Below, piece by piece: positions 2,776-54,672 of a stretch of 64,000 nt of DNA (the stretch's first letter is position 1; each line of letters opens with the position of its first letter). The notes under the pieces were generated by a model. That model made no database searches, was not told the DNA's origin, and saw nothing but the letters and a program-made list of their open reading frames with translations. The DNA is from Patescibacteria group bacterium UBA2135 (GTDB lineage: Bacteria; Patescibacteriota; Minisyncoccia; Phycocordibacterales; UBA2135): the NCBI GenBank assembly GCA_002327685.1, contig DCXN01000003.1, positions 6,981 through 70,980 on the forward strand. The letters are read 5' to 3'. Position numbers and translations under genes: made by a program.

Positions 2776-3240
2776 TCAAGCAACGGAAGCGTCGTTTTCT
2801 TGTTGAATTTTTTCGGCCAAAATGGCGCGCACTCCTTCGGGCTCCTGCATAAATTGCTTGAAAAGCTCATCCGCCGCTTGTCTATGTTGATCTTCTTCCG
2901 ATAACTGCTGCATCCTGGTTCGCTTCAGAGAGTCGTCAATAGACTGCAGCACTTCAATCAACGGCGTTCTGAGCTTAGCTCTCGGAACATCTTTCGCGTC
3001 CACGCCAAGAGCTTTGAGCATCCAGCGCAAGTTGAGCTGATGTCCACGATAACGCATTTCAGAGATTGTCTGAGACACGAAAAACATTCCGCTGAATGGT
3101 CCATCTCCTCCAGTATCCTCAATAATCTTATTACACAAAGCAATGCATTCATCACAGATATGCACTGCCGGACCAGCAATGAGCTTATGGACTTCATGCT
3201 GACTTTTACCGCAGAATGAACAATCTAAGGCTTTAGGCAT
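2776..3240 (-). CDS. Standalone ClpX-type zinc-binding (ZB) domain protein
   Basis: N-terminus [40 protein letters not shown] closely matches the ClpX N-terminal C4 zinc-finger, but there is no AAA+ domain (155 aa). Start adjusted to ATG 3238-3240, which has an AGGGAG RBS 8 nt upstream. Confidence 0.6.
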
Positions 3241-3357
3241 ATCAAAACTCCCTTTGAACAACAAACGATAGAGTCCTAATCTATTGCTATTGTAACATAA
3301 ATAAAACTAATGTCAACAAGATATGTACACAAAATATTCCTAAAACACCCTAAACCG

Positions 3358-3426
3358 CCGCCGCAAGGCCCGGCCTTACATGGGGATAACCTGTGCATAA
3401 ACCACCCCGCAAGGCCGGGCCTTGCG
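3358..3426. repeat. REP-like element, family 1 (copy 3)
   Basis: CCGCCGCAAGGCCCGGCCTTACATGGGGATAACCTGTGCATAAACCACCCCGCAAGGCCGGGCCTTGCG. Confidence 0.8.
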
Positions 3427-3499
3427 TAAGCTCCTCGCATGCCACACACAAAAAGCCCCTACAAAAGGGACTTTCCGCTCAAACCACTCAAAAAAACAA

Positions 3500-3940
3500 T
3501 TACTTCAACTCAACCTTCCCCCCTGCCTCTTCAATCTTCTTTTTCATATCTTCCGCGTCTTCCTTCTTCACCCCTTCCTTAAGCATAGCCGGCACACCAT
3601 CAACAAGATCTTTCGCATCCTTAAGCCCAAGACCAAGTATCTCTTTTACAGCTTTGATAACCTGTATTTTTTGTTCTCCGCTAGAAGTAAGCTCAACATT
3701 AAATACAGATTTCTCCTCCGCCGCTCCACCAACATCTCCACCTGCAGGAGCAGCAGCAACAGCCGCAACAGCTTGCGCCGACACGCCAAATTTCTTTTCC
3801 AAAACCTTAACCAATTCAGAAAGATCAAGAACACTCATTTTCTCAATCTCCTCAACTAATTTCTTAAATTTTTCAGGAACCTCTACAACCTCGTCCTGCT
3901 GTGATTCCTCTTTAGATTCAGATTTCGTTTCTTCAACCAT
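3500..3940 (-). CDS. rplL: 50S ribosomal protein L7/L12
   Basis: Ala/Glu-rich hinge and the C-terminal domain [29 protein letters not shown]...GGKVELK. Confidence 0.9.
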
Positions 3941-3945
3941 GTTAC

Positions 3946-4027
3946 TAGGCTCTAGATTTTAGGCTCTAGGCTCTAGGAAAGAATCCGTGTTCCGTCCTAA
4001 AGCCTAATGCCTAATGCCTAATGCCTT
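3946..4027. repeat. Short tandem repeats in the rplJ-rplL spacer
   Basis: GGCTCTAG x3 followed by GCCTAATG x3. Confidence 0.5.
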
Positions 4028-5503: not shown

Positions 5504-5625
5504 TACAAAAAAGCAGGCCGCCCGCTTCGCCACCACCCGCTCCGACGAGTCGGAGACGAGGCGAGAGGCAAGCAAACGACCCGTTACAAGACTTCTTCCC
5601 TATTCTCTTCATCTCTGTGTCTTTA

Positions 5626-5823
5626 TCAGATATCCATGTCATCAATCGACACCCTCATCCCCTCTGCCATTTTTTTATCCGCCTCTTCTTTCTCTTTTAC
5701 TTTAGCCAATTTACCACTATCCACCACCATGATCGAATTAATCCTATCAATCGTCTTCTCCATTTTCTCCATTTTTTTCTTTAATTCTGCCACTTGTACT
5801 TCAATCTCCTCCAAAGTCGACAT
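5626..5823 (-). CDS. Small coiled-coil protein
   Basis: 65 aa, charged heptad-like sequence. Preceded by the same 90-bp leader as the 5198-5413 gene. Confidence 0.4.
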   Translation of the reverse strand: MSTLEEIEVQVAELKKKMEKMEKTIDRINSIMVVDSGKLAKVKEKEEADKKMAEGMRVSIDDMDI

Positions 5824-5913
5824 AATCTTACTCCTCTAGTCTTAGGTTTATGTGAACCAATCTGTCACCTATATAACACAACTTACAATTTAACACCAGC
5901 GTTGCAAGAAAAA
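5824..5913 (-). promoter_or_regulatory. Duplicated 90-bp 5' leader (copy 2)
   Basis: Identical to 5414-5503. Confidence 0.55.
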
Positions 5914-5925
5914 AGGCAGACTACG

Positions 5926-5947
5926 AACAGTCTGCCCTCACATATCT
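5926..5947 (-). terminator. Rho-independent terminator
   Basis: GGCAGACT-ACGAAC-AGTCTGCC hairpin with a T6 run on the minus strand. Confidence 0.55.
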
Positions 5948-6285
5948 TTAGTCGAATGAATCTCAAATCCTTCATCCTGAACATCCTGAGCCCACCGCGT
6001 ATCTTTCCCAAGATACGGATTATGATCCTTACACACCCTATATTTCTCTAATTTTACACTTCCCTCACTTCCGCCACTTCGCAAATCACGTGATGCTGAC
6101 TTACCCGGCGGAATAAAAAAAACGGTAAATTGAGCTTTGTTTAAACATTTTTCTCCCGTATTCGTATGCGGACACTCGCAACAAATCTCCCGCAAAACCT
6201 TGCCCTTCCTAAATTTTCTAAACATCCTAAACTTTCTCAAAAAAGCAAACCAATTCCACAACATCAGCTTACCTCCTTTTTTCAA
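5938..6285 (-). CDS. Hypothetical protein (Cys-containing)
   Basis: 115-aa ORF containing CCECPH...C. Confidence 0.35.
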   Translation of the reverse strand: MKKGGKLMLWNWFAFLRKFRMFRKFRKGKVLREICCECPHTNTGEKCLNKAQFTVFFIPPGKSASRDLRSGGSEGSVKLEKYRVCKDHNPYLGKDTRWAQDVQDEGFEIHSTKDM

Positions 6286-6328
6286 ATCTCCAAACTAACC
6301 ACATCTTACCACCTTATCGCCGCGCTAT

Positions 6329-6397
6329 CGCCGCAAGGCCCGGCCTTACATGGGGATAAACTGTGGAAAACCTACCCCGCAAGGCCCGGCCTTGCGG
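6329..6397. repeat. REP-like element, family 1 (copy 4)
   Basis: CGCCGCAAGGCCCGGCCTTACATGGGGATAAACTGTGGAAAACCTACCCCGCAAGGCCCGGCCTTGCGG. Confidence 0.8.
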
Positions 6398-6720
6398 GTT
6401 TTTATATCCCACCCCTAAACACAAAATCACCTCATTTCCTAGAGCCTATTCACAATCTCGCCGCAAGTGAAAGAAATACTGCTCGCCGGCCAAAATCTCG
6501 AAATTCAGGCTGCAAATTATTCAAGACTCGTCGCCATATCTCGATATGCCTCCTCGTCTTTCATAATTTTCGCTCTGAATTTCGAAATTTATGGCTCGGC
6601 GCGAGATCGTAAACAGGCTCTAACGTCTCAAAATTAAAGCATCATTTTTTAAAAAACAATCCCGAAAATACATTATAAATTAAGGGTATTTTAGGAGCAT
6701 AAACAATCACCAAAAAACAC

Positions 6721-6749
6721 TTGACAAACAGATTTAACCATGATACACT
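6721..6749 (+). promoter_or_regulatory. Sigma70-like promoter (TTGACA-17-TACACT)
   Basis: TTGACAAACAGATTTAACCATGATACACT followed by RBS AGGAGG and ATG at 6794. A near-identical motif is at 14810-14838. Confidence 0.55.
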
Positions 6750-6793
6750 CTACATGGAGACTAGAACTTCACACTTGACTAGGAGGACATCAA

Positions 6794-7210
6794 ATGTCCA
6801 AAAAGGATGCGACGAAAGAAAGACAGCCCAGCGGTCCTTTCAGCGGACTCAGGTCTTGGCTACGTAAAGCCAAAACACCGGAGACCAGCCTAACAGCTAG
6901 CTCCCCAGAGAACCAGCCTGAAAAGCAACCGCCAGAGCTAGTCTTGACGCATCAAACCCATAAGCACAAACGGATCGGCTCGATCAGTGTATCGGTGCCA
7001 GTGCTCGCCAAAGGGAAAATTCTCACCCTTAACTCCCGCCAAGACAAGGGTCAGACACCATTGACTCGTGTCTTATTCAACGAGGTAGCAGGGATCGAGG
7101 GTATGATACTTCGACAGCACAGGGTTCAGATCAGAAGAGTCAAGGGTTCTCACTGGAACCAAATCTTTCCCGATGCAGAAAAAGTTATCCGTCAACATCT
7201 GACGGGCTAA
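6794..7210 (+). CDS. Hypothetical protein
   Basis: 138-aa ORF with a consensus RBS and promoter. Confidence 0.55.
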   Translation: MSKKDATKERQPSGPFSGLRSWLRKAKTPETSLTASSPENQPEKQPPELVLTHQTHKHKRIGSISVSVPVLAKGKILTLNSRQDKGQTPLTRVLFNEVAGIEGMILRQHRVQIRRVKGSHWNQIFPDAEKVIRQHLTG

Positions 7211-7272
7211 TACGCCCGTCACAAAACCAGCCGGCCCACACAGGGTCGGCTTTGTTTTTCACCCCCTCCCTC

Positions 7273-7341
7273 CGCCGCAAGGCCCGGCCTTACATGGGGA
7301 TAACTTGTTGATAAACTGCCCCGTAAGGCCGGGCCTTGCGG
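7273..7341. repeat. REP-like element, family 1 (copy 5)
   Basis: CCGCCGCAAGGCCCGGCCTTACATGGGGATAACTTGTTGATAAACTGCCCCGTAAGGCCGGGCCTTGCGG. Confidence 0.8.
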
Positions 7342-7378
7342 AAACAAAAACACGACCGAACCTTTTGGGTTCGATCGT
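7342..7378 (-). terminator. Rho-independent terminator for the 7401-7823 gene
   Basis: ACGACCGAACC-TTTT-GGGTTCGATCGT hairpin with a T-run on the minus strand. Confidence 0.55.
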
Positions 7379-7400
7379 ATAAAAATTGACACATATCTAT

Positions 7401-7823
7401 TCAGCCACCTGTATTCTCATCACCGTCACCTTGCGCCACAAAATGTTTCTCCGCACCACGACGTGTTACAAAAGCAAACATAAACGCGCCAACATAAAAA
7501 GAAAGAAGAAAGCCAATAATAAGCCAAAGTGGTGTTAAAGACCAAAACGAGATTTCAAAAAGGACTATCGCAAAAAGCATAAGAATGAAAATTTTGACGT
7601 GTGTATAAATCCAAGATTTTTTATGGCGAACTTGCGCCAATAGACCAAAAGCAAACGGGGTAATCAATATACCGATTACTCCAAGAGGTTCTATCGCAAA
7701 ATACATTCCGGTCATTCCGGAAGATTCTATACTTGTTACCGCCACAAAATACATTCTAGCTATCAAACCAAGACCCAAACTGCCCAACAATACCGGAAGT
7801 GTAGACCAGTTAATAATGCGCAT
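7401..7823 (-). CDS. Integral membrane protein
   Basis: 140 aa with four predicted transmembrane segments. Confidence 0.55.
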   Translation of the reverse strand: MRIINWSTLPVLLGSLGLGLIARMYFVAVTSIESSGMTGMYFAIEPLGVIGILITPFAFGLLAQVRHKKSWIYTHVKIFILMLFAIVLFEISFWSLTPLWLIIGFLLSFYVGAFMFAFVTRRGAEKHFVAQGDGDENTGG

Positions 7824-7955
7824 GATAATTTCCTTTCATATCTATTCGCATTTATTCACATTTCTGCGATAAACTCATGAGACTTATGTAACTTCTAAAA
7901 CTAAGTATCCCCAAAAACATTTTTTTGTCAACAGTCAACACACCACCCCACACCC

Positions 7956-8024
7956 CGCCGCAAGGCCCGGCCTTACATGGGGATAAGTTGTTGATAACCC
8001 ACCCCGCAAGGCCGGGCCTTGCGG
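7956..8024. repeat. REP-like element, family 1 (copy 6)
   Basis: CGCCGCAAGGCCCGGCCTTACATGGGGATAAGTTGTTGATAACCCACCCCGCAAGGCCGGGCCTTGCGG. Confidence 0.8.
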
Positions 8025-8079
8025 CATACCCAACCTTTCCCCCCCCACACAACACTGCTCTTACCTAACCACAGCCCAC

Positions 8080-10323
8080 CTACGGCCCCACCCCATACCT
8101 CCAATTCAAAACACCATAATCAAGATGCGGTGGAGCCCCCGCGCCAGTTTTAAAAAACGCCCTAAAATCAGCGACGTCATTATAAGAGAAACTATTACGC
8201 ACCTTATAAATCGCAGCAAACAATCGCTCCCCCTGAATAGGATTCAAAATGTCATCATTTTGCTGAGAACTAGGGCTCGTACCCAAAGAATGCCCATTAA
8301 CAATCGTTGAACTCGCCACAACCCCCCGATATAAATCACCATACACCGTCCCAGATATACCAGAATAAACATACTTGCAAGAGCCACTCTCTGGAATATA
8401 ATATCCCCCTTCAGAAAAACTTGAAGTCTCCGACGGGCAAAAATAACCAATCGCGAGAAGCGAAACACTGTTCTGCGCGCGCGGAGTACCATTAAGCGCG
8501 CCGCCATCCGCATCCGTGCCATTCACGGTAAAAGTATTATTTGATTTCCAATTCGTAGCAAGCGCGCCGTCTACCCCAAAGCTCACCCGCTCCATAGAAA
8601 GATAGTCAGAACCAGCGCTCCCGCCACACCATCCGCCGCCACAATCAGAAAGCGCCGGCGTCTCATCAAGCGTCGTAGTAGCAAAACCACCAAGATACTG
8701 AACAAGACTCAACACCTCGCCGCCATTCCCCAGATCAGAACTGCCGCCCGATCCGCTAAACGCTACTACTAAATCTTCAACAACACTCGTAGTATTACCG
8801 TCAGTCCGCTCTATAAGATAAAATCCGCTTGACGTCGCAGTCGCAGCCCCATCCCCTAACGAAATATCAGGCGCGCCATCTTCAGCGACAAGCGAAACAT
8901 TCGCAAGGGTAATGTCATGATTTGAAGGACTAAACAACTCCACCCACTCATCCGCACTTGACGCGTCCGTTCCTCCCCAGGCAATTTCATTAATAACAAG
9001 CGGGCGCGTAACCACCTCAACAGATTGCGCAGTCGTAGTAGCGCCATTTCCAACGGCATCATAAACAGCAGCTTGTAGATTATACGAGCCATCAGCTGAA
9101 ACCGTTATCGTCCCCGACGCGTCTGTCGTCGTAGCGGTCAACACACCGTCCCGGACGAGCGCGTAATACGCTATGTCAGTTGAAGAAGAACTCCACGAAA
9201 GGTTAAGCGTCATTCCGCCTGACAAACATGTCTCTGACGAAAGAGAATATTCACATTGAAGAACCGAGAACGAGCCAAACACAGGCGCGATGGTGTCTAC
9301 CGAAATAGTTTTCGCCGACGATGTCGCCGTCATCCCCTCACTGTTGGCGGCAATAATTTGAATAGCCGTTTCCCCTTCTGGAAAATTACTCAGCACAAGC
9401 GTCCAACTTTCGTTTTCATCCGCTGTCGTAGTCGCATTATTAAAATTGTTTGAGATGACAAGCGTTGACGAAGCAGTGCCGGAAAACGTGAGCGACGTCG
9501 TCGCGGTGTCAAAAACATCATCCGCGGGAGAAATAATAATCGGCGCGGAAATGACAACAGCCGCTGACTCCTCTTCTTCTTCAGCCTCTTCCTCTTCTTC
9601 TTCCTCCGCAGACTCACTCTCTTCAGCGTCATCCTGCGGCGCCTCCGGCGCCGTACCACCACCCCCACTCCCACCACCAAACCCCGGCTGATACGGTTGC
9701 GGCTGATATGGCTCCGACTCCAACAGGTCATCACCATCAATATCCGTCAATAAATCATCAACATCCGTCGCCACCTCCTCAGACTCAACCGGAATCTCCG
9801 CAAGCGGAGATTCCCCCACAGGCACAACCACAACTTCCGGCGCAACCACATCCACATCCCCCCCAAAAACCTCCCCCACCGACGGCTCCGCAAGCGGAGC
9901 CGTCACACTCACAAGCGGCGCCTCCGGCGCCGCCACAATTGAGAAAAAGGCTTCTTTGTCAGTTTTTTTATCAAGCTCAAAATTTTTTATTCTTTCTATA
10001 ACTTGAGATAGTTGCTGTTCTTGTTTTGCTTTTTCTAAATCACTTTTCATCTCCTCCCTATCATCCGGCAAAAAATACTTACTCGCCAACTCCACATCCT
10101 CCGCCTCAAGCGCTTCAATAAAAAGCGCGAGTGTTTCTTCCGGTGTTGCGCCGCCGAAGGTGTCATTTTCATATTCCTTCTCCAAATTTTCAAAATATTC
10201 AATCGCCGCGCGCTCCTGCCGCCCCTCGGGATTCAAATACGCCACCCCAACCCAAACAAGCAAGCCAACGACAATAATCCCCAAAAACCCTAATAAAAAC
10301 CTTTTACTTGTACCATTTAACAT
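8080..10323 (-). CDS. Large membrane-anchored surface protein with a lamin-tail domain, Ig-like repeats and an acidic/Pro-rich linker
   Basis: N-terminal transmembrane segment. Glu-rich and PQPYQP repeat tract. VINEIAWGGTDASSADEWVELFSP matches a lamin-tail domain. 747 aa. Confidence 0.7.
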   Translation of the reverse strand: MLNGTSKRFLLGFLGIIVVGLLVWVGVAYLNPEGRQERAAIEYFENLEKEYENDTFGGATPEETLALFIEALEAEDVELASKYFLPDDREEMKSDLEKAKQEQQLSQVIERIKNFELDKKTDKEAFFSIVAAPEAPLVSVTAPLAEPSVGEVFGGDVDVVAPEVVVVPVGESPLAEIPVESEEVATDVDDLLTDIDGDDLLESEPYQPQPYQPGFGGGSGGGGTAPEAPQDDAEESESAEEEEEEEAEEEEESAAVVISAPIIISPADDVFDTATTSLTFSGTASSTLVISNNFNNATTTADENESWTLVLSNFPEGETAIQIIAANSEGMTATSSAKTISVDTIAPVFGSFSVLQCEYSLSSETCLSGGMTLNLSWSSSSTDIAYYALVRDGVLTATTTDASGTITVSADGSYNLQAAVYDAVGNGATTTAQSVEVVTRPLVINEIAWGGTDASSADEWVELFSPSNHDITLANVSLVAEDGAPDISLGDGAATATSSGFYLIERTDGNTTSVVEDLVVAFSGSGGSSDLGNGGEVLSLVQYLGGFATTTLDETPALSDCGGGWCGGSAGSDYLSMERVSFGVDGALATNWKSNNTFTVNGTDADGGALNGTPRAQNSVSLLAIGYFCPSETSSFSEGGYYIPESGSCKYVYSGISGTVYGDLYRGVVASSTIVNGHSLGTSPSSQQNDDILNPIQGERLFAAIYKVRNSFSYNDVADFRAFFKTGAGAPPHLDYGVLNWRYGVGP

Positions 10324-10395: not shown

Positions 10396-10575
10396 CGAAC
10401 GGGAAAGGTCTGACCTTGAGGAAAAAACTGTGTCGCCAGGTCTGGCCTTGAGGAGGAGCGGAGCGACGGGAGAAGACCAGACCTTGCGGTACAGTTTTTG
10501 GGAAAAGGTCGGACCTCGCGGAGTCCATTTGCCGAACTGAGGAGTTTCAGCCCGAGACTGATCCGCCTCAGGCGG
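10396..10575. repeat. Family-2 GC-rich repeat array
   Basis: Units such as GGTCTGACCTTGAGG / CCAGGTCTGGCCTTGAGGAGGAGCGGAGCGACGGGAGAAG / ACCAGACCTTGCGG / GGTCGGACCTCGCGG. The core resembles the family-1 arm (CCGCAAGGYCCGGCCTT). Confidence 0.75.
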
Positions 10576-14129: not shown

Positions 14130-14199
14130 CCGCCGCAAGGCCCGGCCTTACATGGGGATAAGCTGTTGATAAACTACTCCATAAGGCCGGGCCTTGCGG
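14130..14199. repeat. REP-like element, family 1 (copy 7)
   Basis: CCGCCGCAAGGCCCGGCCTTACATGGGGATAAGCTGTTGATAAACTACTCCATAAGGCCGGGCCTTGCGG. Confidence 0.8.
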
Positions 14200-16957: not shown

Positions 16958-17031
16958 CCCCCGCAAGGCCCGGCCTTGCAAGTTATCCACAGGTTATCCC
17001 CCAAAAACCTCTCTCAAGGCCGGGCCTTGCA
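16958..17031. repeat. REP-like element, family 1, inverted variant (copy 9)
   Basis: CCCCGCAAGGCCCGGCCTTGCAAGTTATCCACAGGTTATCCCC...CAAGGCCGGGCCTTGC. The central part is the reverse complement of GGGGATAACCTGTGGATAA. Confidence 0.7.
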
Positions 17032-26879: not shown

Positions 26880-27034
26880 CCCCCCTCACTCGAAAAATTA
26901 TTGACGACGTAGAGCGAGGTAAATGGACGGGAAAGGTCTGACCTTGAGGAGGAGCGAAGCGACGGGAGAAGGTCGGACCTTGCGGAGTCCATTTGCCGAG
27001 CCGAGGAGTTAGTAACTTTTCGAGTGAGGGGGTG
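26880..27034. mobile_element. Non-coding MITE-like element with the same inverted repeats as the GIY-YIG element, carrying a family-2 repeat core
   Basis: Inverted repeats CCCCCTCACTCGAAAA (26881-26896) and TTTTCGAGTGAGGGGG (27017-27032) enclose GACGGGAAAGGTCTGACCTTGAGGAGGAGCGAAGCGACGGGAGAAGGTCGGACCTTGCGGAGTCCATTTGCCGAGCCGAGGAG. Confidence 0.55.
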
Positions 27035-30942: not shown

Positions 30943-31070
30943 AGCCAGGTCTAGCCTTGAGGAAAAAACTGTACGGCCAGGTCTGACCTTGAGGAGGAGC
31001 GGAGCAACGGGAGAAGGTCGGACCTTGCGGTATAGTTTTCGGAAGAAGACCAGACCTTACGGACCTTGTC
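30943..31070. repeat. Family-2 GC-rich repeat array
   Basis: CCAGGTCTAGCCTTGAGGAAAAAACTGTACGGCCAGGTCTGACCTTGAGGAGGAGCGGAGCAACGGGAGAAGGTCGGACCTTGCGG...GACCAGACCTTACGGACCTTG. Confidence 0.75.
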
Positions 31071-47862: not shown

Positions 47863-48053
47863 CCGCCAGGTCTGGCCTTGAGGAGGAGCGGAGCCGAGTC
47901 TGACTCGGCGCAGCGACGGGAAAAGGCCGGACCTTGCGGAACGGTTTTTTCTAATTTGCAGACCTTGAGAAAAAAACTGTGCAGCCAGGTCTGGCCTTGA
48001 GGAGGAGCGAAGCGACGGGAAAAGGCCGGACCTTGCGGAACAGTTTTCCGCAG
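47863..48053. repeat. Family-2 GC-rich repeat array (two large units)
   Basis: CCAGGTCTGGCCTTGAGGAGGAGCG(G/A)AGC...GACGGGAAAAGGCCGGACCTTGCGGAAC(G/A)GTTTT x2, one unit with an inserted CCGAGTCTGACTCGG hairpin. Confidence 0.8.
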
Positions 48054-48150
48054 TTTCCCCCCATTCCATCAGAACCTTGCAAGGTTTTGATAGAATGTTA
48101 ACAATTTAGGCAAAATTCCCCTCAATTTTATATGAATACAGCAATTTTTA

Positions 48151-48190
48151 AACTATTTCAGTTTATCAAAATGAAGGTTCCTCGTGCGCA
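48151..48190. repeat. 36-40-bp direct repeat abutting a stop codon (copy 1)
   Basis: AACTATTTCAGTTTATCAAAATGAAGGTTCCTCGTGCGCA. Copy 2 is at 49075-49113. Confidence 0.6.
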
Positions 48191-48844
48191 TTAGTTCTCT
48201 AAATCAACAACAGTAATATCAGAAAAAACCTCTTGCAATACACGTAATCGTTCTGATGATTCTGTTTGTGACTTCTTTGAAAATTCTTTAATACTGTTTT
48301 CAATGTCATTTGTCATCTCTCCTGTTTTTTTAAATTTTTCTAATTCTCCATTTGGTAACATTGGCCAAAAATCTTTTGGTAAGCCACTCGTACCCTTTCT
48401 AACTCCTCCAATAAATCTCTTGTAGATACGGGATGTATATTTTTCTATTGGTGTGGGGTGAATGTATATAAATTCAAAATCAGACAACGTATCTGAAAAA
48501 ATACTTTTTAATGTATGTGGGTTTGCCATTGAACCTTCCACTACAACATTACCTCGCAATATAGCTTTTCGTAACTCTTGTTGAGCACCGGTAATAAAAG
48601 CTTCTCTCCATTCTGATGGTTCACCAAAACGATATGCCACAACATAAGCTTTAGGAACATCATCTACACCAAATTTTTCAACAACATTTTTTTGTACAAT
48701 TTGATCAAATGAAATCGATACATACCCAAGATCCTCTACTAGTTGATGAGCGAATGTTGTTTTTCCTGTTGAGGTTTTACCACTGATATATACAATCTGT
48801 GGTTTTGTGTTTTTAATCTTCTTATATACTCCCTCAAGATTCAT
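48191..48844 (-). CDS. P-loop NTPase / nucleoside(-tide) kinase-like protein
   Basis: Walker A IVYISGKTSTGKTTFAHQL. 217 aa. Confidence 0.55.
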   Translation of the reverse strand: MNLEGVYKKIKNTKPQIVYISGKTSTGKTTFAHQLVEDLGYVSISFDQIVQKNVVEKFGVDDVPKAYVVAYRFGEPSEWREAFITGAQQELRKAILRGNVVVEGSMANPHTLKSIFSDTLSDFEFIYIHPTPIEKYTSRIYKRFIGGVRKGTSGLPKDFWPMLPNGELEKFKKTGEMTNDIENSIKEFSKKSQTESSERLRVLQEVFSDITVVDLEN

Positions 48845-48909
48845 AAAATTATTATAACGCTGAATACTTAATATATTGAATAAATATAGTACCTCGTGCT
48901 AGCTCTAAG

Positions 48910-48995
48910 ATGCGGAGACTGAGGGATTCGAACTGTCTCGGTCACCCCGATACTAAATGTTAAGTGCGGGGTGTTAGGGATTCGAACACTTCTCG
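48910..48995. other. tRNA-like T-loop motifs (GGGATTCGAAC x2) that do not fold into a canonical cloverleaf
   Basis: Two GGGATTCGAAC motifs 52 nt apart plus a 7-bp stem CACCCCG...CGGGGTG. Manual folding on either strand failed to give T-stem pairing. Possibly a degraded tRNA or att remnant. Confidence 0.2.
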
Positions 48996-49074
48996 TGCGT
49001 AATCACTACGCTCAAATTGCCTAACCTCCTCAAGCTAAAACTTTTGTCGATCAAGCCCCGTAAAGTTTATTTTT

Positions 49075-49113
49075 AACTATTTTAATTTATCAAAATGAAG
49101 GTCCTCGTGTACC
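49075..49113. repeat. 36-40-bp direct repeat abutting a stop codon (copy 2)
   Basis: AACTATTTTAATTTATCAAAATGAAGGTCCTCGTGTACC. Confidence 0.6.
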
Positions 49114-49824
49114 TTAATTTTTAACATCATATTTTAAATGAAGATAGGAATGTTCTAATTGTTTGCAAGATACTAATGTAAGTGGTCTCAACTTCATCAA
49201 CTCGAAGTTATTATGTAATGACTCACCATCAATAAGTGTTGCTGTATTCTTTCCTCCGACTAAAATTGGTGCAACAACAATGGAAAGATGGTCAATCAAT
49301 CCAGCTCTTAACAAAACGGAGTTTAGTGTTCCTCCAGATTGAATTGTGAGCTTGTCAGCCCCATTCTTTTTTAACTTATAGAGTACATCTTGAAAATCAA
49401 TTTCATTATTATATAAAAGAAAAGTAATCTTATCATTCTGACCTGAAAGAATTTTTGCAGGATGATTAGCGTTTGTACTTACAACAAACACGCCTCTAGT
49501 TTTTTCAGCCAAGTATTCAATCCCTTCAGAAGTTAGGTGTGGCTTATTATCAACTACCACGAATGAAACAGGAATACCATCTTGAAATACCTTTTTCTCA
49601 TTTACTCCAATTTTTTCAAAAACTCTACCCGAGTTAAGCGAAAAAGGATCCGTAGTCTGTTCAATATCATAGTATTGTTTCAATCCTTCTTTTACCCCAT
49701 CAACATTAAGGAAATCCTTATCGACATCCATTGCGTCGGTATCTCCAGTCGATATTTTCCCATCGACAGACATAAGCATGAATAGTGTTGTTTCTGGTCT
49801 TTCCATATATTTATCATAACGCAA
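49114..49824 (-). CDS. RibD C-terminal domain / dihydrofolate-reductase-like reductase
   Basis: TLFMLMSVDGKISTGD...VVVDNKPH...IVVAPILVGGKNT. Confidence 0.6.
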   Translation of the reverse strand: MRYDKYMERPETTLFMLMSVDGKISTGDTDAMDVDKDFLNVDGVKEGLKQYYDIEQTTDPFSLNSGRVFEKIGVNEKKVFQDGIPVSFVVVDNKPHLTSEGIEYLAEKTRGVFVVSTNANHPAKILSGQNDKITFLLYNNEIDFQDVLYKLKKNGADKLTIQSGGTLNSVLLRAGLIDHLSIVVAPILVGGKNTATLIDGESLHNNFELMKLRPLTLVSCKQLEHSYLHLKYDVKN

Positions 49825-49894
49825 TCAATAAAATTGCATAACAAATTGCCTACAGATAAATGTGAATAATCGCCATTAATTTTCTGATATTTTT

Positions 49895-51361
49895 TTATTC
49901 CTCTCGCAACTTATCCAACTCAAGAGTTTCGTCTATGCGAATCTGATTTACAAAATCCGAAACGTGAGAAACAAGCACCATGGCCCCTTTATATTGATCT
50001 AGCGCCTTTGCGATGATGGGTAGATGGCGAAAGTTTATATGATTAGTAGGTTCGTCTAAAATAAGCAGGTTCGGTCTCATAAGTGCAAGTTGTGCAAATG
50101 ACACGAGTCCTTTTTGTCCTTCGGACAAATTTCCTATCTTTGTGTATATAAGCTCTCCTGTTATCAAAAATCCTGCCGCCAAACTCCTCATCATCTGTTC
50201 ATCCTCTCTGTCCATTGCCTTCTTCAGCGTGTCATACACAGTCTCATCAAAATCAAGCATGGAAAAATCCTGTCTATAATAGCCCACTCTCACACCATCT
50301 GAAATCTTTGCACCCTGCTCTGTGCCATGCGCCAAATTATTAAGCAAAGTACTTTTTCCTATGCCATTTGGGCCAGTTAAAAGAAGATGCCTATTTTTCG
50401 TTAAAGATACGTCCGCCACTCTAGAAGACAACTTATCGCCTTGCATAATAGAGAGTGCGTGAATCCGCAAAATCTCGCCTACGTGATGCTCCTTAACGTC
50501 TATATCAAATTTTCGTATAGTTTTGTCTTCACGACGCACATCCACTTTGGATTCTTCCGCCTCTTGCGCACTTTCACGCATACGTTTTGCCAAGATCCTC
50601 ATGCGACCTCCTTTGTTTGCGAAAAAGTTTGCCTTGTCTTTTTTCTCTTGAATATGTTTTTCAAATTGAGCGTTTTTTCTACGTTCTTTTTCTACACGAG
50701 CTACTATCTCCTTAACCACGTCTTTGTAGTCACCAACATATTTTTCTATTTTTCTCGTAAAGACATCTAGATACAAAACGCCTTCCGTGAAAGCATTTAA
50801 AAAATCTGCATCATGAGAAATCACGATAACCGTTTTTTTGTAATCAATCAAAAACTTTTTCAAATGTGAAATCCCATCTTTATCTAGATTGTTTGTGGGT
50901 TCATCTAAGAGCAATATGTCAGGGTTCTGTATTAAAGCAGATGCCAAAAGAAGGCGCGCCTGCTGTCCTCCAGAGAAATCTTTTATGAGCTTTTCCTTTG
51001 GGGCGTGTAGGTTTACGACTTCTAAAATCTTATCTATACGCACATCAATGTTATATATTTTCTCCGTGAAGCACTCTTGAAAAAACTCACGCACAGAAAT
51101 TTCAAGCTGGTCACGTGGTATTACCTGTCTAGCTATCGCCACGGAAAGATTCGGCGCGAAATGAATATCCCCTTCTGCAGGCGTACGCTTTTTTGTGATT
51201 AGCTCAAACAAAGTGCTTTTCCCTGATCCATTTTGCCCCATGAGAGTTATTTTTGAGCCACGACGCACAGTAAAGCTCACCTCATCTAATATGGGTTTCT
51301 TTGCGCTGTATTCAAATGACACCTCGTCAAATCTTATTATTACTTCTGTTTTTTCTGACAT
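49895..51361 (-). CDS. ABC-F family ATPase (tandem ABC domains, no transmembrane domain)
   Basis: Two Walker A motifs (GQNGSGKST; GPNGIGKST), two signature motifs (FSGGQQAR; LSEGQKG), and a charged interdomain linker. Confidence 0.85.
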   Translation of the reverse strand: MSEKTEVIIRFDEVSFEYSAKKPILDEVSFTVRRGSKITLMGQNGSGKSTLFELITKKRTPAEGDIHFAPNLSVAIARQVIPRDQLEISVREFFQECFTEKIYNIDVRIDKILEVVNLHAPKEKLIKDFSGGQQARLLLASALIQNPDILLLDEPTNNLDKDGISHLKKFLIDYKKTVIVISHDADFLNAFTEGVLYLDVFTRKIEKYVGDYKDVVKEIVARVEKERRKNAQFEKHIQEKKDKANFFANKGGRMRILAKRMRESAQEAEESKVDVRREDKTIRKFDIDVKEHHVGEILRIHALSIMQGDKLSSRVADVSLTKNRHLLLTGPNGIGKSTLLNNLAHGTEQGAKISDGVRVGYYRQDFSMLDFDETVYDTLKKAMDREDEQMMRSLAAGFLITGELIYTKIGNLSEGQKGLVSFAQLALMRPNLLILDEPTNHINFRHLPIIAKALDQYKGAMVLVSHVSDFVNQIRIDETLELDKLREE

Positions 51362-51371
51362 AGTTAGCAAA

Positions 51372-52090
51372 GCATTTTAATCAATTTAATCAAAAAGAAC
51401 GCACGCGGTGCGTCCTTGCTCCTTGTTGACAGAACTATACTACAAATCCACTACCTACGCAATCATCTTTTTGAAACGCCGTCAGGTCTGGCCTTCCCGC
51501 CTGCCATCGCCCGACTGACCTTTGCGGACGATTAGGCAGTGGCGGGCAGGGAGGAGGAGCGGAGCGACGGGCCTCGGTCTCGGATAATTCTATACCAAGC
51601 ACTACAAGGCTTTTCTGACGGCTTTTAGTTTACTGTTTCAATGCTCCTCGGAACAAAGTGTAAATTGCTTATCCTCGTAAAACAAGCTATCCTTAGATTG
51701 GATGCTTGAGCAGTGCCGAGGCTAATACGGCGAGATCAGCACGCTAGCCCGAATACCTCGACAGTACTTTGACCGGCCTTAGCTTCAAAGTTGAGGAACG
51801 TCGTCCGTAACTATAACGGACCTTCGCTTGAGCATCCACTTTCTTCTAGCCATTTCTTTGGAAGTGGTTTTTCTATTATAAGAAGCTCTTCATACTCTGA
51901 TCATACTCTGAACCTACCCCGAACTACCTGACTGCTTAGAACGATGTTGAAACCTGTTTTATTTTATCAAATTAATCACTCGACAAAGATTCAAATGGCA
52001 GATAATGCTCGAATATTTTAATGAACATCGAGCTGTCCACAGAAACAAGAAAGCCGCCTACTTCAAACATAAAGTGACGGCTTATATTAA
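51372..52090. other. About 720-nt ORF-free region (candidate leader or ncRNA) containing a disrupted family-2 repeat
   Basis: No ORF of 60 aa or more in any frame. Mixed GC. Several stems (AACGCAC-GCG-GTGCGT; CCGCCTGCC...GGCAGTGGCGGG). The family-2 core (51481-51584) carries a 50-nt insertion. Confidence 0.35.
51481..51584. repeat. Family-2 repeat, disrupted copy
   Basis: GTCAGGTCTGGCCTTCC-[50-nt insert]-AGGGAGGAGGAGCGGAGCGACGGGCCTCGGTCTCGG. Confidence 0.6.
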
Positions 52091-52477
52091 TTAGGAATCT
52101 CCGAGAAAAGAATCCAGACTCTCTTTATTAAATTCCATGCAATGACCAACGATAACCAGAACATCACGTGGCTTAAACCACACTGCTTCAAGATTCCGCC
52201 CTTTGAACTTATCTTCGCCTTCACGAAAATTTCGCTGAAATACAGCAGTTGAGGCACCGTGTGTTCCATATTCATGAAAAAACCAACGCTGTCCATCATC
52301 TTCTAAAGGATCCCCTCGAAAGAGGAGGCATGGAACAGTACTTTGTTCACTTGGACCAGAAAACGCGACAGCATCGATTTTTGGAAAAGTACGTCCTTTG
52401 CAATCAAAAAGGTGTTGCCCTTTTACCTCAACCACTTTTAACACAGTAACAAACAAACCTTTTGATATCTCAAACAT
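52091..52477 (-). CDS. Hypothetical protein
   Basis: 128-aa ORF with a protein-like composition. Confidence 0.4.
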   Translation of the reverse strand: MFEISKGLFVTVLKVVEVKGQHLFDCKGRTFPKIDAVAFSGPSEQSTVPCLLFRGDPLEDDGQRWFFHEYGTHGASTAVFQRNFREGEDKFKGRNLEAVWFKPRDVLVIVGHCMEFNKESLDSFLGDS

Positions 52478-52604
52478 TTCTACCTACCTTTAAATTTAAT
52501 ATCAAAATTCTAATACAGTAATAACACTATGTAATTTCTTTTGCAACAGATTACCGCGGGCTAACGAGATAGTTTTTTATGCGACGTAAACGGAAACAGT
52601 CACA

Positions 52605-53459
52605 TTAATTTCTCACATTCTTCCCATCGCTCTTAAAAATAATCGTCCCCTGCTCGTCTGTCCTCAAAATTTCACTTTCAAATTGTTCAAGGCGCGCAAT
52701 CACCTCTTCGTGAGGGTGACCGTATCTATTTGCCACGCCAGCCGATATGACAGAAAATAATGGTGACGCATACCCAAGAAACAAATCGGATGTAGAGGTT
52801 TTTGAGCCATGATGACCAATCTTCAACACATCAACGTCAATCATTTTCCCATCAAGCGAAACAACAAAGTTTTCCATCTTTTGCGACGCGTCACCTGTGA
52901 AAAGAAATGATGTATCTTCATAAATCAGTTTCGCAATAATTGATGCATCATTCGCGCTCACTCCAGACATGTCTCTGTCAGGAAACAAAACAAGTAAGTA
53001 CACTTTTTCATCCAAAAATATTTTCATTCCACGCCGCGCTATAACATTCTCACTTCCCTCTAACGCAATCAAACGCACTAGCTCCTCGTACGCACCTGTT
53101 TCTACCGCAATACCAGGCTCAATAAAATAATCAACTTTAAAATTTTTCAAAACCGCCGGAAGCCCACCGATATGATCTTTGTCCGGATGTGTTGCAAGCA
53201 CAACATCAATTGAACGATCATAAAATGGCATAACAGTGGAAAGCTCCTGCAAAACGCGAGTATTCCCTCCACCGTCTATAAGCATTTGATTCCCATTTGG
53301 CGCTTCAATAAAAACCGCATCCCCCTGCCCCACATCCAAAAACGCAACCGTCAAAATCCCCGCGCGTTCCTCACCAAAAATCGCACACCAAATCAAGGCG
53401 TTCGCAAAGAAAAGCACGCCAAGAAAATACCATTTTGCGTTTTGGCGGATAGATTCCAT
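52605..53459 (-). CDS. Metallo-beta-lactamase-fold protein (ComEC/Rec2 C-terminal domain-like), membrane-anchored
   Basis: LDVGQGDAVFIEAPNGNQMLIDGG...HPDKDHIGG...GHHGS. N-terminal transmembrane segment. Confidence 0.75.
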   Translation of the reverse strand: MESIRQNAKWYFLGVLFFANALIWCAIFGEERAGILTVAFLDVGQGDAVFIEAPNGNQMLIDGGGNTRVLQELSTVMPFYDRSIDVVLATHPDKDHIGGLPAVLKNFKVDYFIEPGIAVETGAYEELVRLIALEGSENVIARRGMKIFLDEKVYLLVLFPDRDMSGVSANDASIIAKLIYEDTSFLFTGDASQKMENFVVSLDGKMIDVDVLKIGHHGSKTSTSDLFLGYASPLFSVISAGVANRYGHPHEEVIARLEQFESEILRTDEQGTIIFKSDGKNVRN

Positions 53460-54547: not shown

Positions 54548-54672
54548 GTTTTACATCCACATCGTCAAAACCGCGCGCTCCTCACCAAAAATTGCGTACC
54601 AAATCAAAGCATTCGCAAAAAAAAGCACGCCAAGAAAATACCATTTTGCGTTTTGCTTAATATTCTTCATAA
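54548..54672 (-). pseudogene. Duplicated 5' fragment (promoter-proximal region plus first ~40 codons) of the metallo-beta-lactamase gene
   Basis: About 125 bp at roughly 85-90% identity to 53327-53459. Forms direct repeats around the 130-aa gene and the relBE cassette. Confidence 0.6.

Follow-up and report, generated by a model that had tools for sequence, protein, structure and literature searches.

The DNA analysed here, a stretch of 64 kb referred to as the window, contained an ORF-free gap at positions 51362-52090, located between the stop codon of a gene for a 128-amino acid ORFan, here called p128, and the start codon of a gene for an ABC-F ATPase, both of which were encoded on the minus strand. 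A previous reading of the sequence alone, here called the sequence-only reading, had described an ORF-free region of mixed composition upstream of the ABC-F gene, with several stems and a disrupted family-2 repeat, and this description was borne out. The longest ORF within the gap was 55 amino acids and located in a GC-rich repeat, stop codons were present throughout all six frames, and no gene had been called in the gap by the gene callers in three independent public contigs with an identical locus. The GC content was 0.63 to 0.69 at positions 51480-51600 and 0.54 at positions 51700-51800, as compared with about 0.40 for the locus, and several stems were recovered when the gap was folded. The ABC-F protein had the same sequence as MAG12776.1 (CL630_03120), a protein from a marine Tara Oceans metagenome, and its relatives were Patescibacteria/Parcubacteria. 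The features identified in the gap and its flanking genes were as follows:

49895-51361, minus strand: gene for the ABC-F ATPase, 488 amino acids, with two Pfam ABC_tran domains, served by the predicted promoter and leader given below
51364-51375, minus strand: mini-ORF ATG-CTT-TGC-TAA, located past the T-run and before the start codon of the ABC-F gene
51388-51417, minus strand: terminator-like hairpin and T-run in the 5' UTR of the ABC-F gene, 10 bp, -12.2 kcal/mol, hairpin at 51395-51417
51434-51462, minus strand: predicted ABC-F promoter, -35 element TTGCGT (51462-51457), 17-nt spacer, -10 element TATAGT (51439-51434)
51474-51626, minus strand: degenerate, composite copy of the family-2 (REP-like) repeat, a dispersed palindromic family
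51665-51693, plus strand: weak promoter-like sequence TTGCTT-N17-TATCCT, read from the sequence and fairly often expected by chance
51699-51838, strand uncertain, plus strand slightly favoured by z-scores and pairings: orphan 140-nt four-way-junction fold
51848-51879, plus strand: weak terminator-like hairpin and T-run, -9.7 kcal/mol with 2 G-U pairs, only -3.3 kcal/mol on the minus strand
51890-51911, no strand assigned: 11-nt unit repeated twice in tandem, TCATACTCTGA on the plus strand, no further copy found
51961-51969, minus strand: extended -10-like element TGATAAAAT (TGnTAAAAT), hypothetical promoter role without comparative support
52051-52083, minus strand: predicted intrinsic terminator of p128, 14 bp, -17 kcal/mol, with UCUUGUUUCUGU as its U-rich tail
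52091-52477, minus strand: gene for p128, the stop codon of which bounds the gap

The hairpin of the p128 terminator begins 8 nt past the p128 stop codon (52091-52093) and lies just beyond the upper edge of the segment at 51627-52050, which we refer to as the orphan part of the gap. The p128 protein itself had no match in Pfam, PHROG, PADLOC, or NCBIfam, and the AlphaFold model was unusable, with a pLDDT value of 32. A single homolog was identified among 5.8 billion proteins, with 49% identity by alignment and the common motif EYGTHGASTAVFQ; it was encoded on a contig of 590 nt, on which the downstream sequence was unrelated. It was also noted that a 17-nt sequence at 51962-51978 is a direct copy of the sequence at 51376-51392 near the ABC-F start, that no third copy is present in the window, and that the -10-like element TGATAAAAT falls within the former.

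The GC-rich peak of the gap was explained by the family-2 repeat. A canonical copy of this repeat forms a hairpin about 80 nt long, in which the arms AAAACTGTaCCGCAAGGTCyGryCTT and AAGGyCAGACCTGGCgaCACAGTTTTTT flank a loop. The window contained six copies, every one of which was intergenic and located on the minus strand, and the palindromic core AAGGYCNGRCCTT occurred 32 times in the 64 kb as compared with an expectation of 0.3. The copy in the gap consisted of a left arm (51606-51626), an extra segment of 34 nt (51572-51605), a loop (51551-51571), a nested GC-rich hairpin insert of 55 nt (51496-51550), and a right arm (51474-51495). At five other sites in the window, the loop of 21 nt, CCCGTCGCTCCGCTCCTCCTC, and the arm AAGGCCAGACCTG were adjacent to each other, whereas in the gap copy the 55-nt hairpin parted the loop from the right arm, in line with the disrupted repeat noted by the sequence-only reading. 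The family-2 repeat was also present in a sister species, at non-orthologous positions, and a scan of metagenome contigs identified 19 loci. A nested insert of the same subfamily, with the same ends (CCTGCCCGCCACTGCC...GGCGATGGCAGGCGGG), placed at the same position in the loop and with a longer interior, was identified at two of these other loci, L112 (7536-7678) and L102 (2574-2729), while a further subfamily, in which the nested hairpin is of another kind, was found at 47869-47940 in the window and in the sister species. The nested insert in the gap copy is not a unique disruption and, given the anatomy of the copy and the recurrence of the insert at L112 and L102, the GC peak represents a nested repeat that resembles the REP/BIME type.

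Like the REP and BIME elements of Enterobacteria and Pseudomonas, the family-2 repeats are short, GC-rich, imperfect palindromes that are present in many copies and only in intergenic regions. In both cases, the repeats are often located after genes and in one orientation, contain a palindromic core (AAGGYCNGRCCTT in this family), occur as single, tandem or nested units, and are found at different loci in sister species. The family-2 repeats differ from the classical REPs in that their sequence is unrelated, their units are longer, spanning about 70 to 150 nt, with nested hairpin inserts, and their host is a Parcubacteria (CPR) genome.

The suggestion that a gap of this length is unusual in a compact genome was only partly sustained. 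ORFs of at least 100 amino acids covered only about 76% of the window, which contained nine gaps of at least 500 nt, ranging from 515 to 1461 nt, where gaps were defined by the absence of ORFs of at least 100 amino acids and some include smaller called genes. Many of these nine gaps contained GC-rich hairpin repeats. A fold scan of the 64-kb window with 150-nt sliding windows on a fixed grid identified 25 separate loci with z-scores of -5 or lower, and the same scan gave z-scores of just -1.8 to -2.6 over the gap unless the sliding window was registered on the central hairpin. When the gap was folded as a whole, the z-score was -5.4 for the minus strand versus -2.6 for the plus strand. Searches for tRNA and tmRNA genes with ARAGORN and for Rfam families at the gathering threshold gave no hits across the 64 kb.

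The segment closest to the ABC-F gene contained a candidate promoter of the sigma-70 type, from which transcription is predicted to start near 51427-51430, which would give a leader of about 65 to 72 nt. About 10 nt past the -10 element, a GC-rich hairpin, AAGGACGCAC-CGC-GTGCGTTCTT followed by TTTGATT (51417-51388), lies between an A-tract and a U-tract and precedes AU-rich sequence and the ATG codon. The ABC-F protein of the sister species, P0123, was 96% identical in sequence and the second member of the 90% protein cluster. Its gene was preceded by the promoter sequence TTGCAT-N17-TATAGT, located inside the sole block of DNA common to the two species, and the same hairpin was kept.

The promoter motif and its spacing recurred upstream of the orthologs in L004 and L006 to L011, with identities of 75% to 80%. 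The -35 element in the orthologs was TTGnnn (TTGCRT in the five closest), the spacer was 17 nt and often ended in TTTGTnG, and the -10 element was TAnnGT or TATTAT. The hairpins consisted of 4 to 10 bp with an A-tract and a run of 5 to 7 T residues on either side, and were weak, with about 3 to 4 bp, in L010 and L011; another 13 to 22 nt separated the T-run from the ATG codon. The distance from the -10 element to the ATG codon was 42 to 47 nt, and the leaders were likewise 42 to 47 nt long in most orthologs, versus 78 nt in L010 and 72 nt for the ABC-F gene of the window. The same order of promoter, hairpin, T-run, and ATG codon, with stems that were unrelated in sequence, was observed in L085, L004, L006, L007, L008, L009, L010, and L011. 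In L004, the gene upstream has a terminator of its own before the -35 element, and the second hairpin therefore belongs to the ABC-F transcript.

This architecture preceded the ABC-F gene in most orthologs with at least 75% identity and was rare elsewhere. With a strict rule, the module was identified in 9 of 78 ortholog loci, as compared with an expectation of 0.0016 per 110 nt of the same loci, and the only other case in the 64-kb window was a terminator at the end of a gene. In the nine leaders, the hairpin was located 3 to 11 nt from the predicted transcription start, there was no start codon between the two, and each leader showed one hairpin when folded singly. An alignment of the nine leaders with MAFFT followed by RNAalifold predicted no pairs, since the unrelated stems were misaligned, and the conservation of the hairpin is therefore judged from the individual folds and from its position. 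We conclude that a conserved promoter-proximal hairpin with a U-tract precedes the ABC-F gene in this clade, while the use of the promoter, the start of transcription, and termination at the leader hairpin are predictions from the sequence.

A search for short uORFs or leader peptides, as proposed by the sequence-only reading, identified none with a ribosome-binding site before the hairpin, and mini-ORFs were present only downstream of the U-tract. The mini-ORF at 51364-51375 is situated in a segment of 25 nt that has no counterpart in the sister species. Mini-ORFs of the form ATG-TAA or ATG-GAT-TAA were found in L004, L008, and L006, all past the U-tract, and none was found in L085, L009, or L011. 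The best NCBIfam match of the ABC-F protein was NF000355 (ribosomal protection-like ABC-F), with a score of 320 bits that is below the cut-off of 380, and its scores for the named ARE families were far under their cut-offs.

The DNA of the sister species could be aligned only to positions 51470 to 49896 of the window, with 92.4% identity over 1575 nt. The block common to both thus consists of about 110 nt upstream of the ATG codon and the coding sequence, with neither flank beyond, and in the sister species the obg gene ends 82 nt before the ABC-F gene. Because the alignment is limited to this block and obg is located only 82 nt upstream in the sister species, the sequence at 51471-52090 is lineage-specific. 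A second set of contigs from the sister species was collinear with the window, with the Patatin and MBL genes on one side and the genes for p644, GlyRS, and M16 on the other. The sister species contained the genes purK-purE-purC-purB between the MBL gene and a repeat located before p644, and the alignment of the collinear contigs ended at positions 52612 and 47950 of the window, which instead contained p128, the gap, and the genes for ABC-F, RibD_C, and an NB-ARC-like P-loop protein. The break in synteny therefore places the gap inside a lineage-specific island, into which the ABC-F gene appears to have been relocated as a cassette of promoter, leader, and gene. A fragment of the MBL gene was duplicated near the gap, and none of the p128, MBL, RibD_C, and NB-ARC-like proteins was encoded beside the ABC-F gene in any of 80 GTDB species. 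At 77 further ortholog loci, the ORF-free stretch before the ABC-F gene was mostly shorter than 200 nt and AT-rich, and longer than 400 nt at only 3 of the 77 loci; none of these loci showed similarity to the gap.

In the orphan part of the gap, the extended -10-like element was located in AT-rich sequence. The orphan part also contained a predicted four-way junction, in which a 13-bp closing stem (51699-51711 with 51826-51838) encloses hairpins at 51712-51768, 51771-51802, and 51803-51821. The z-score of the fold was -4.99 for the plus strand versus -3.01 for the minus strand (200 shuffles), and none of the 200 shuffles was as stable on the plus strand. The plus-strand fold comprised 47 pairs including 5 G-U pairs, as compared with 43 pairs on the minus strand; two of the five G-U pairs are located in the closing stem, and they correspond to A-C mismatches on the minus strand. 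The GC content of the fold region was 0.51 versus about 0.40 for the locus. The sequence TTGCTT-N17-TATCCT, which was missed by the consensus scan, would place the start of a plus-strand transcript on the first nucleotide of the closing stem. An interpretation of TTATCC-like boxes and the 11-nt tandem unit in the region as a replication origin was dropped, because the cumulative GC skew was monotonic across the region.

No homolog of positions 51627-52050 was identified with nhmmer, blastn, or the covariance model R1 in about 0.9 to 1 Mb of related Parcubacteria loci, of which about 210 kb came from relatives that share the repeat, the sister species among them. When all 719 nt were used as a query with nhmmer and blastn against the 80 ortholog loci, the loci of the sister species, and the 19 repeat-bearing metagenome loci, the matches were to the contigs of the locus itself, to the ABC-F leader, or to the repeat only. 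The covariance model, built from the single sequence of the fold, recovered only that sequence itself and one chance match (E = 0.33) in 915 kb, blastn searches of the gap against phage and plasmid collections gave no matches, and exact-pattern scans of viral contigs with the central hairpin and the repeat loop gave none either. A degenerate pattern anchored on the loop had no match in metagenome contigs, a weak result given that the source locus itself was not returned. The examined contigs with this locus, L001 to L003, were identical across the gap and obtained equal nhmmer scores, and covariation was therefore not measurable. Since the comparison is limited to one sister species and fragments of relatives, the absence of homologs is weak evidence.

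The structured noncoding RNAs of Rfam 15 (RNase P RNA, tmRNA, 6S, SRP, OLE, ROOL, GOLLD, raiA, HEARO, and riboswitches) resemble the fold in being enriched in GC relative to an AT-rich genome, in having multi-branch folds, and in their intergenic location, but none of their covariance models gave a match. The Rfam scan that had been proposed as a check returned nothing at the gathering threshold, at E ≤ 1 over 2.5 kb, or at E ≤ 10 for a query of 341 nt, and the suggested unannotated noncoding RNA was thus supported neither by Rfam nor by any homolog. The same applied to the suggested decayed gene, in that tblastx searches against the window, the 80 ortholog loci, the sister loci, and the repeat-bearing loci gave matches only in the repeat and in the ABC-F leader, and none of the ten longest frame fragments of the gap had a Pfam match at E ≤ 1.

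The sequence-only reading had also raised the possibility of a long leader or attenuator for the ABC-F gene. In its full form, the whole gap would be a regulated leader of about 600 to 700 nt, with transcription either initiated at a promoter near 51960-51990 or continuing from p128, and terminated at 51395-51417 in the absence of antitermination. A terminator-like hairpin is indeed located just upstream of the ABC-F start, the z-score of the whole gap is -5.4 on the minus strand, the element TGATAAAAT at 51961-51969 has the form of an extended -10 element, and the ABC-F protein is nearest to the ribosomal protection-like ABC-Fs, a group in which vmlR has an attenuating leader (PMC9226507). 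However, the conserved promoter sits within the gap, only 72 nt from the ATG codon, and the sister species retains the promoter, hairpin, and gene but lacks everything upstream of position 51470. About 150 nt of such a leader would consist of a dispersed repeat copy, the upstream gaps of the orthologs are mostly shorter than 200 nt with only 3 of 77 exceeding 400 nt, and before the hairpin there is neither a uORF with a ribosome-binding site nor room for an antiterminator. What stands of the earlier proposal is a short leader of about 65 to 72 nt; the remaining 620 nt or so (51471-52090) are absent from the sister species, an absence that the sequence-only reading had itself named as counting against its proposal, and we reject the long leader as highly improbable. 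Nearly as improbable is a minus-strand noncoding RNA of about 560 nt that would start near 51953, downstream of the TGnTAAAAT sequence at 51961-51969, and end at the good terminator at 51395-51417. The folding of the whole gap, with z-scores of -5.4 on the minus strand versus -2.6 on the plus strand, is consistent with such a transcript, but it would traverse both the conserved ABC-F promoter and the copy of the repeat, and the sister species has only its last 80 nt at the 3' end, which there belong to the ABC-F gene. No Rfam family matched, including those of large RNAs, and the sub-domains showed no preference for the minus strand.

A protein-coding gene that has decayed, or a scar left by a mobile element, would fit the rearranged island, the duplicated fragment of the MBL gene nearby, and the 17-nt direct repeats (51376-51392 and 51962-51978), which flank 586 nt. 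Against this, the tblastx and Pfam searches gave no protein signal outside the repeat and the ABC-F leader, and terminal inverted repeats, a transposase, and a second copy are all absent. The segment between the direct repeats includes the conserved ABC-F promoter, so that it does not represent a simple insertion into the leader, and for the same reason the direct repeat was rejected as a target-site duplication; we consider a decayed gene or scar to be very unlikely. The remaining alternative concerns the orphan part, which could contain a plus-strand gene, opposite in orientation to the two flanking genes, for a lineage-specific, structured sRNA of about 180 nt, with a weak promoter at 51665-51693, a body at 51699-51838, and a terminator at 51848-51879. 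The z-scores (-4.99 versus -3.01), the five G-U pairs that become A-C mismatches on the minus strand, two of which belong to the closing stem, the stabilities of the terminator-like hairpin (-9.7 versus -3.3 kcal/mol), the position of the signals precisely at the ends of the fold, and the GC content of 0.51 in a locus of about 0.40 all point in this direction. On the other hand, no homolog was identified in any of the sequences searched, the promoter fails the consensus scan, and TTGnnn-N17-TAnnnT is estimated to occur by chance in about 1 of 7 such stretches. Furthermore, 25 loci in the window had z-scores of -5 or lower in the fixed-grid scan, in which the gap approaches -5 only if the window is placed on the fold, and the genome produces multi-branch folds through nested palindromic inserts. 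The sRNA is on this evidence doubtful, if less so than the three other alternatives.

The gap is probably best explained as a composite spacer at a rearrangement junction rather than as a single functional element. Along the minus strand, it would consist of four pieces: the p128 terminator, orphan sequence of about 420 nt, the nested family-2 repeat, and an ABC-F cassette, in which a promoter of the sigma-70 type, TTGCGT-N17-TATAGT, is followed by a leader of about 70 nt that would open almost directly with the GC hairpin. Only the promoter-leader piece was common to the sister species and, as an architecture, to the wider clade. The cassette may have been relocated as a unit beside the repeat copy. 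The 420 nt of orphan sequence are most likely nonfunctional filler, of the hairpin-rich kind that is common in this genome.

We noted that the z-score of about -5 for the fold, the strand-biased G-U pairs, and the promoter-like and terminator-like signals exactly at the ends of the fold count against filler, and are what would be expected of an independent gene for a small RNA. A combined reading, in which the 140-nt fold is a lineage-specific orphan sRNA gene on the plus strand and, separately, the ABC-F hairpin and U-tract form an attenuator that is independent of a leader peptide, appears unlikely.

Within the composite spacer, the promoter-proximal hairpin and U-tract may set the expression of the ABC-F gene, and two mechanisms seem about equally likely. 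One is partial intrinsic termination at the hairpin, which would limit expression with no leader peptide involved. In the other, the hairpin would be a stabilizing stem-loop at the 5' end of the mRNA, followed by an unstructured, U-rich site for ribosome loading. The leaders of ompA, ermC, and aprE are 5'-terminal stabilizing stem-loops of bacterial mRNAs. They share with the ABC-F leader a stem-loop that is located a few nucleotides from the 5' end, here a predicted one, and that precedes an AU-rich translation-initiation region without structure, but these classical stabilizers are not known to have a U-tract resembling that of an intrinsic terminator.

Transcription attenuators that depend on uORFs have been described for the antibiotic-resistance ABC-F genes vmlR and msrD (PMC9226507, bioRxiv 10.1101/2021.11.29.470318). 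The vmlR leader of 219 nt contains a tripeptide uORF driven by an SD sequence, an anti-antiterminator, an antiterminator, a pause hairpin, and a terminator (PMC9226507). Both attenuators resemble the module described here in that a hairpin and a U-tract follow the promoter and precede the start codon of an ABC-F gene. The leaders in this clade differ in that they are only 42 to 78 nt long across the orthologs and contain a single hairpin with no alternative folds, and in that no leader peptide can precede the hairpin, before which there are only 3 to 11 nt. The ABC-F leader is thus not an attenuator of the vmlR type.

Long intergenic stretches that are rich in GC and fold well are common in this genome, where they result from the spread of palindromic repeats and from rearrangements, and caution is therefore needed: length, GC content, and a good z-score for the fold are by themselves insufficient to indicate a riboswitch or a noncoding RNA. 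The compact module of promoter, hairpin, and U-tract that belongs to the ABC-F gene is the sole element in the gap with evolutionary support; it is modest and not a new kind of system. If the hairpin module modulates expression, it would be of a simpler design than the uORF-based attenuators of the resistance ABC-Fs, and the comparison with the sister species suggests that the ABC-F gene has moved between two genomic contexts as a cassette together with its promoter and leader.

Compared with the sister species, the window contains a 4.7-kb island at positions 47951-52611 in place of the purK-purE-purC-purB genes, which are located at 5543-9883 of the sister contig L089. One border of the island is formed by a family-2 palindromic repeat that was found in both the window and the sister genome. 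In the sister species, the ABC-F cassette (contig L085) is flanked by obg on one side and by a 210-aa ORF followed by bipA on the other.

Island and dispersed repeats of the window
47951-52611: island with an NB-ARC-like P-loop protein (217 aa), RibD_C, ABC-F, the ORF-free gap and p128
10405-10517, 26933-26995, 30976-31058, 47867-47940 and 47981-48047, minus strand: family-2 copies outside the gap
225-305, 2006-2064, 3355-3430, 6322-6400, 7268-7345, 7950-8028, 14137-14195 and 16965-17028: sites of the second, ~70-nt repeat family

The family-2 copies outside the gap all have the same orientation, and some are arranged in tandem. The loop of the copy at 47869-47940 contains a nested hairpin (GCCGAGTCAGACTCGGC), and the sister species has this variant too, but at another locus (L089, 15349-15420). 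The second dispersed family of the window has a repeat unit of about 70 nt, CCGCAAGGCCCGGCCTTACATGGGGATAAnnTGTnnATAAnCnnCCCCGCAAGGCCGGGCCTTGCG, in which the palindromic core AAGGCCnGGCCTT occurs twice; this family is shared with a related metagenome contig (L100). No other positions in the window had fold z-scores as extreme as those of its sites, which reached -11.6. Only about 76% of the window is covered by ORFs of at least 100 aa, a low value by Patescibacteria standards, and GC-rich palindromic repeats make up much of the rest. No tRNA, rRNA, tmRNA or Rfam-family match was identified in the 64 kb (1-64000).

The 128-aa p128 protein (52091-52477) is a near-ORFan without a family match. Among 5.8 billion proteins it has a single homolog, which aligns with 49% identity and has the motif EYGTHGASTAVFQ in common with it; the AlphaFold model of p128 was unusable (pLDDT 32). 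The N-terminus of the MBL-fold gene (52605-53459) is duplicated, with 82% identity, in a 38-aa fragment at about 54560-54670, which is annotated as a 39-aa ORF in one contig. This duplicate is located about 1.2 kb upstream of the start of that gene and looks like a rearrangement scar.

Upstream of a distant ABC-F ortholog (L052, 61% identity), we noted an ORF-poor stretch of 1176 nt (2810-3985) with a GC content above the locus mean and no similarity to the gap. Minimal ORFs were identified directly 3' of the leader T-run, a few nucleotides before the ABC-F ATG, in the window and at three orthologous loci; the leaders of L085, L009 and L011 had no such ORF between the T-run and the ATG.

Mini-ORFs upstream of ABC-F
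Window, 51364-51375: ATG-CTT-TGC-TAA
L006: ATG-GAT-TAA
L004 and L008: ATG-TAA

These mini-ORFs could be chance occurrences in AT-rich sequence, or they could be start-stop elements.
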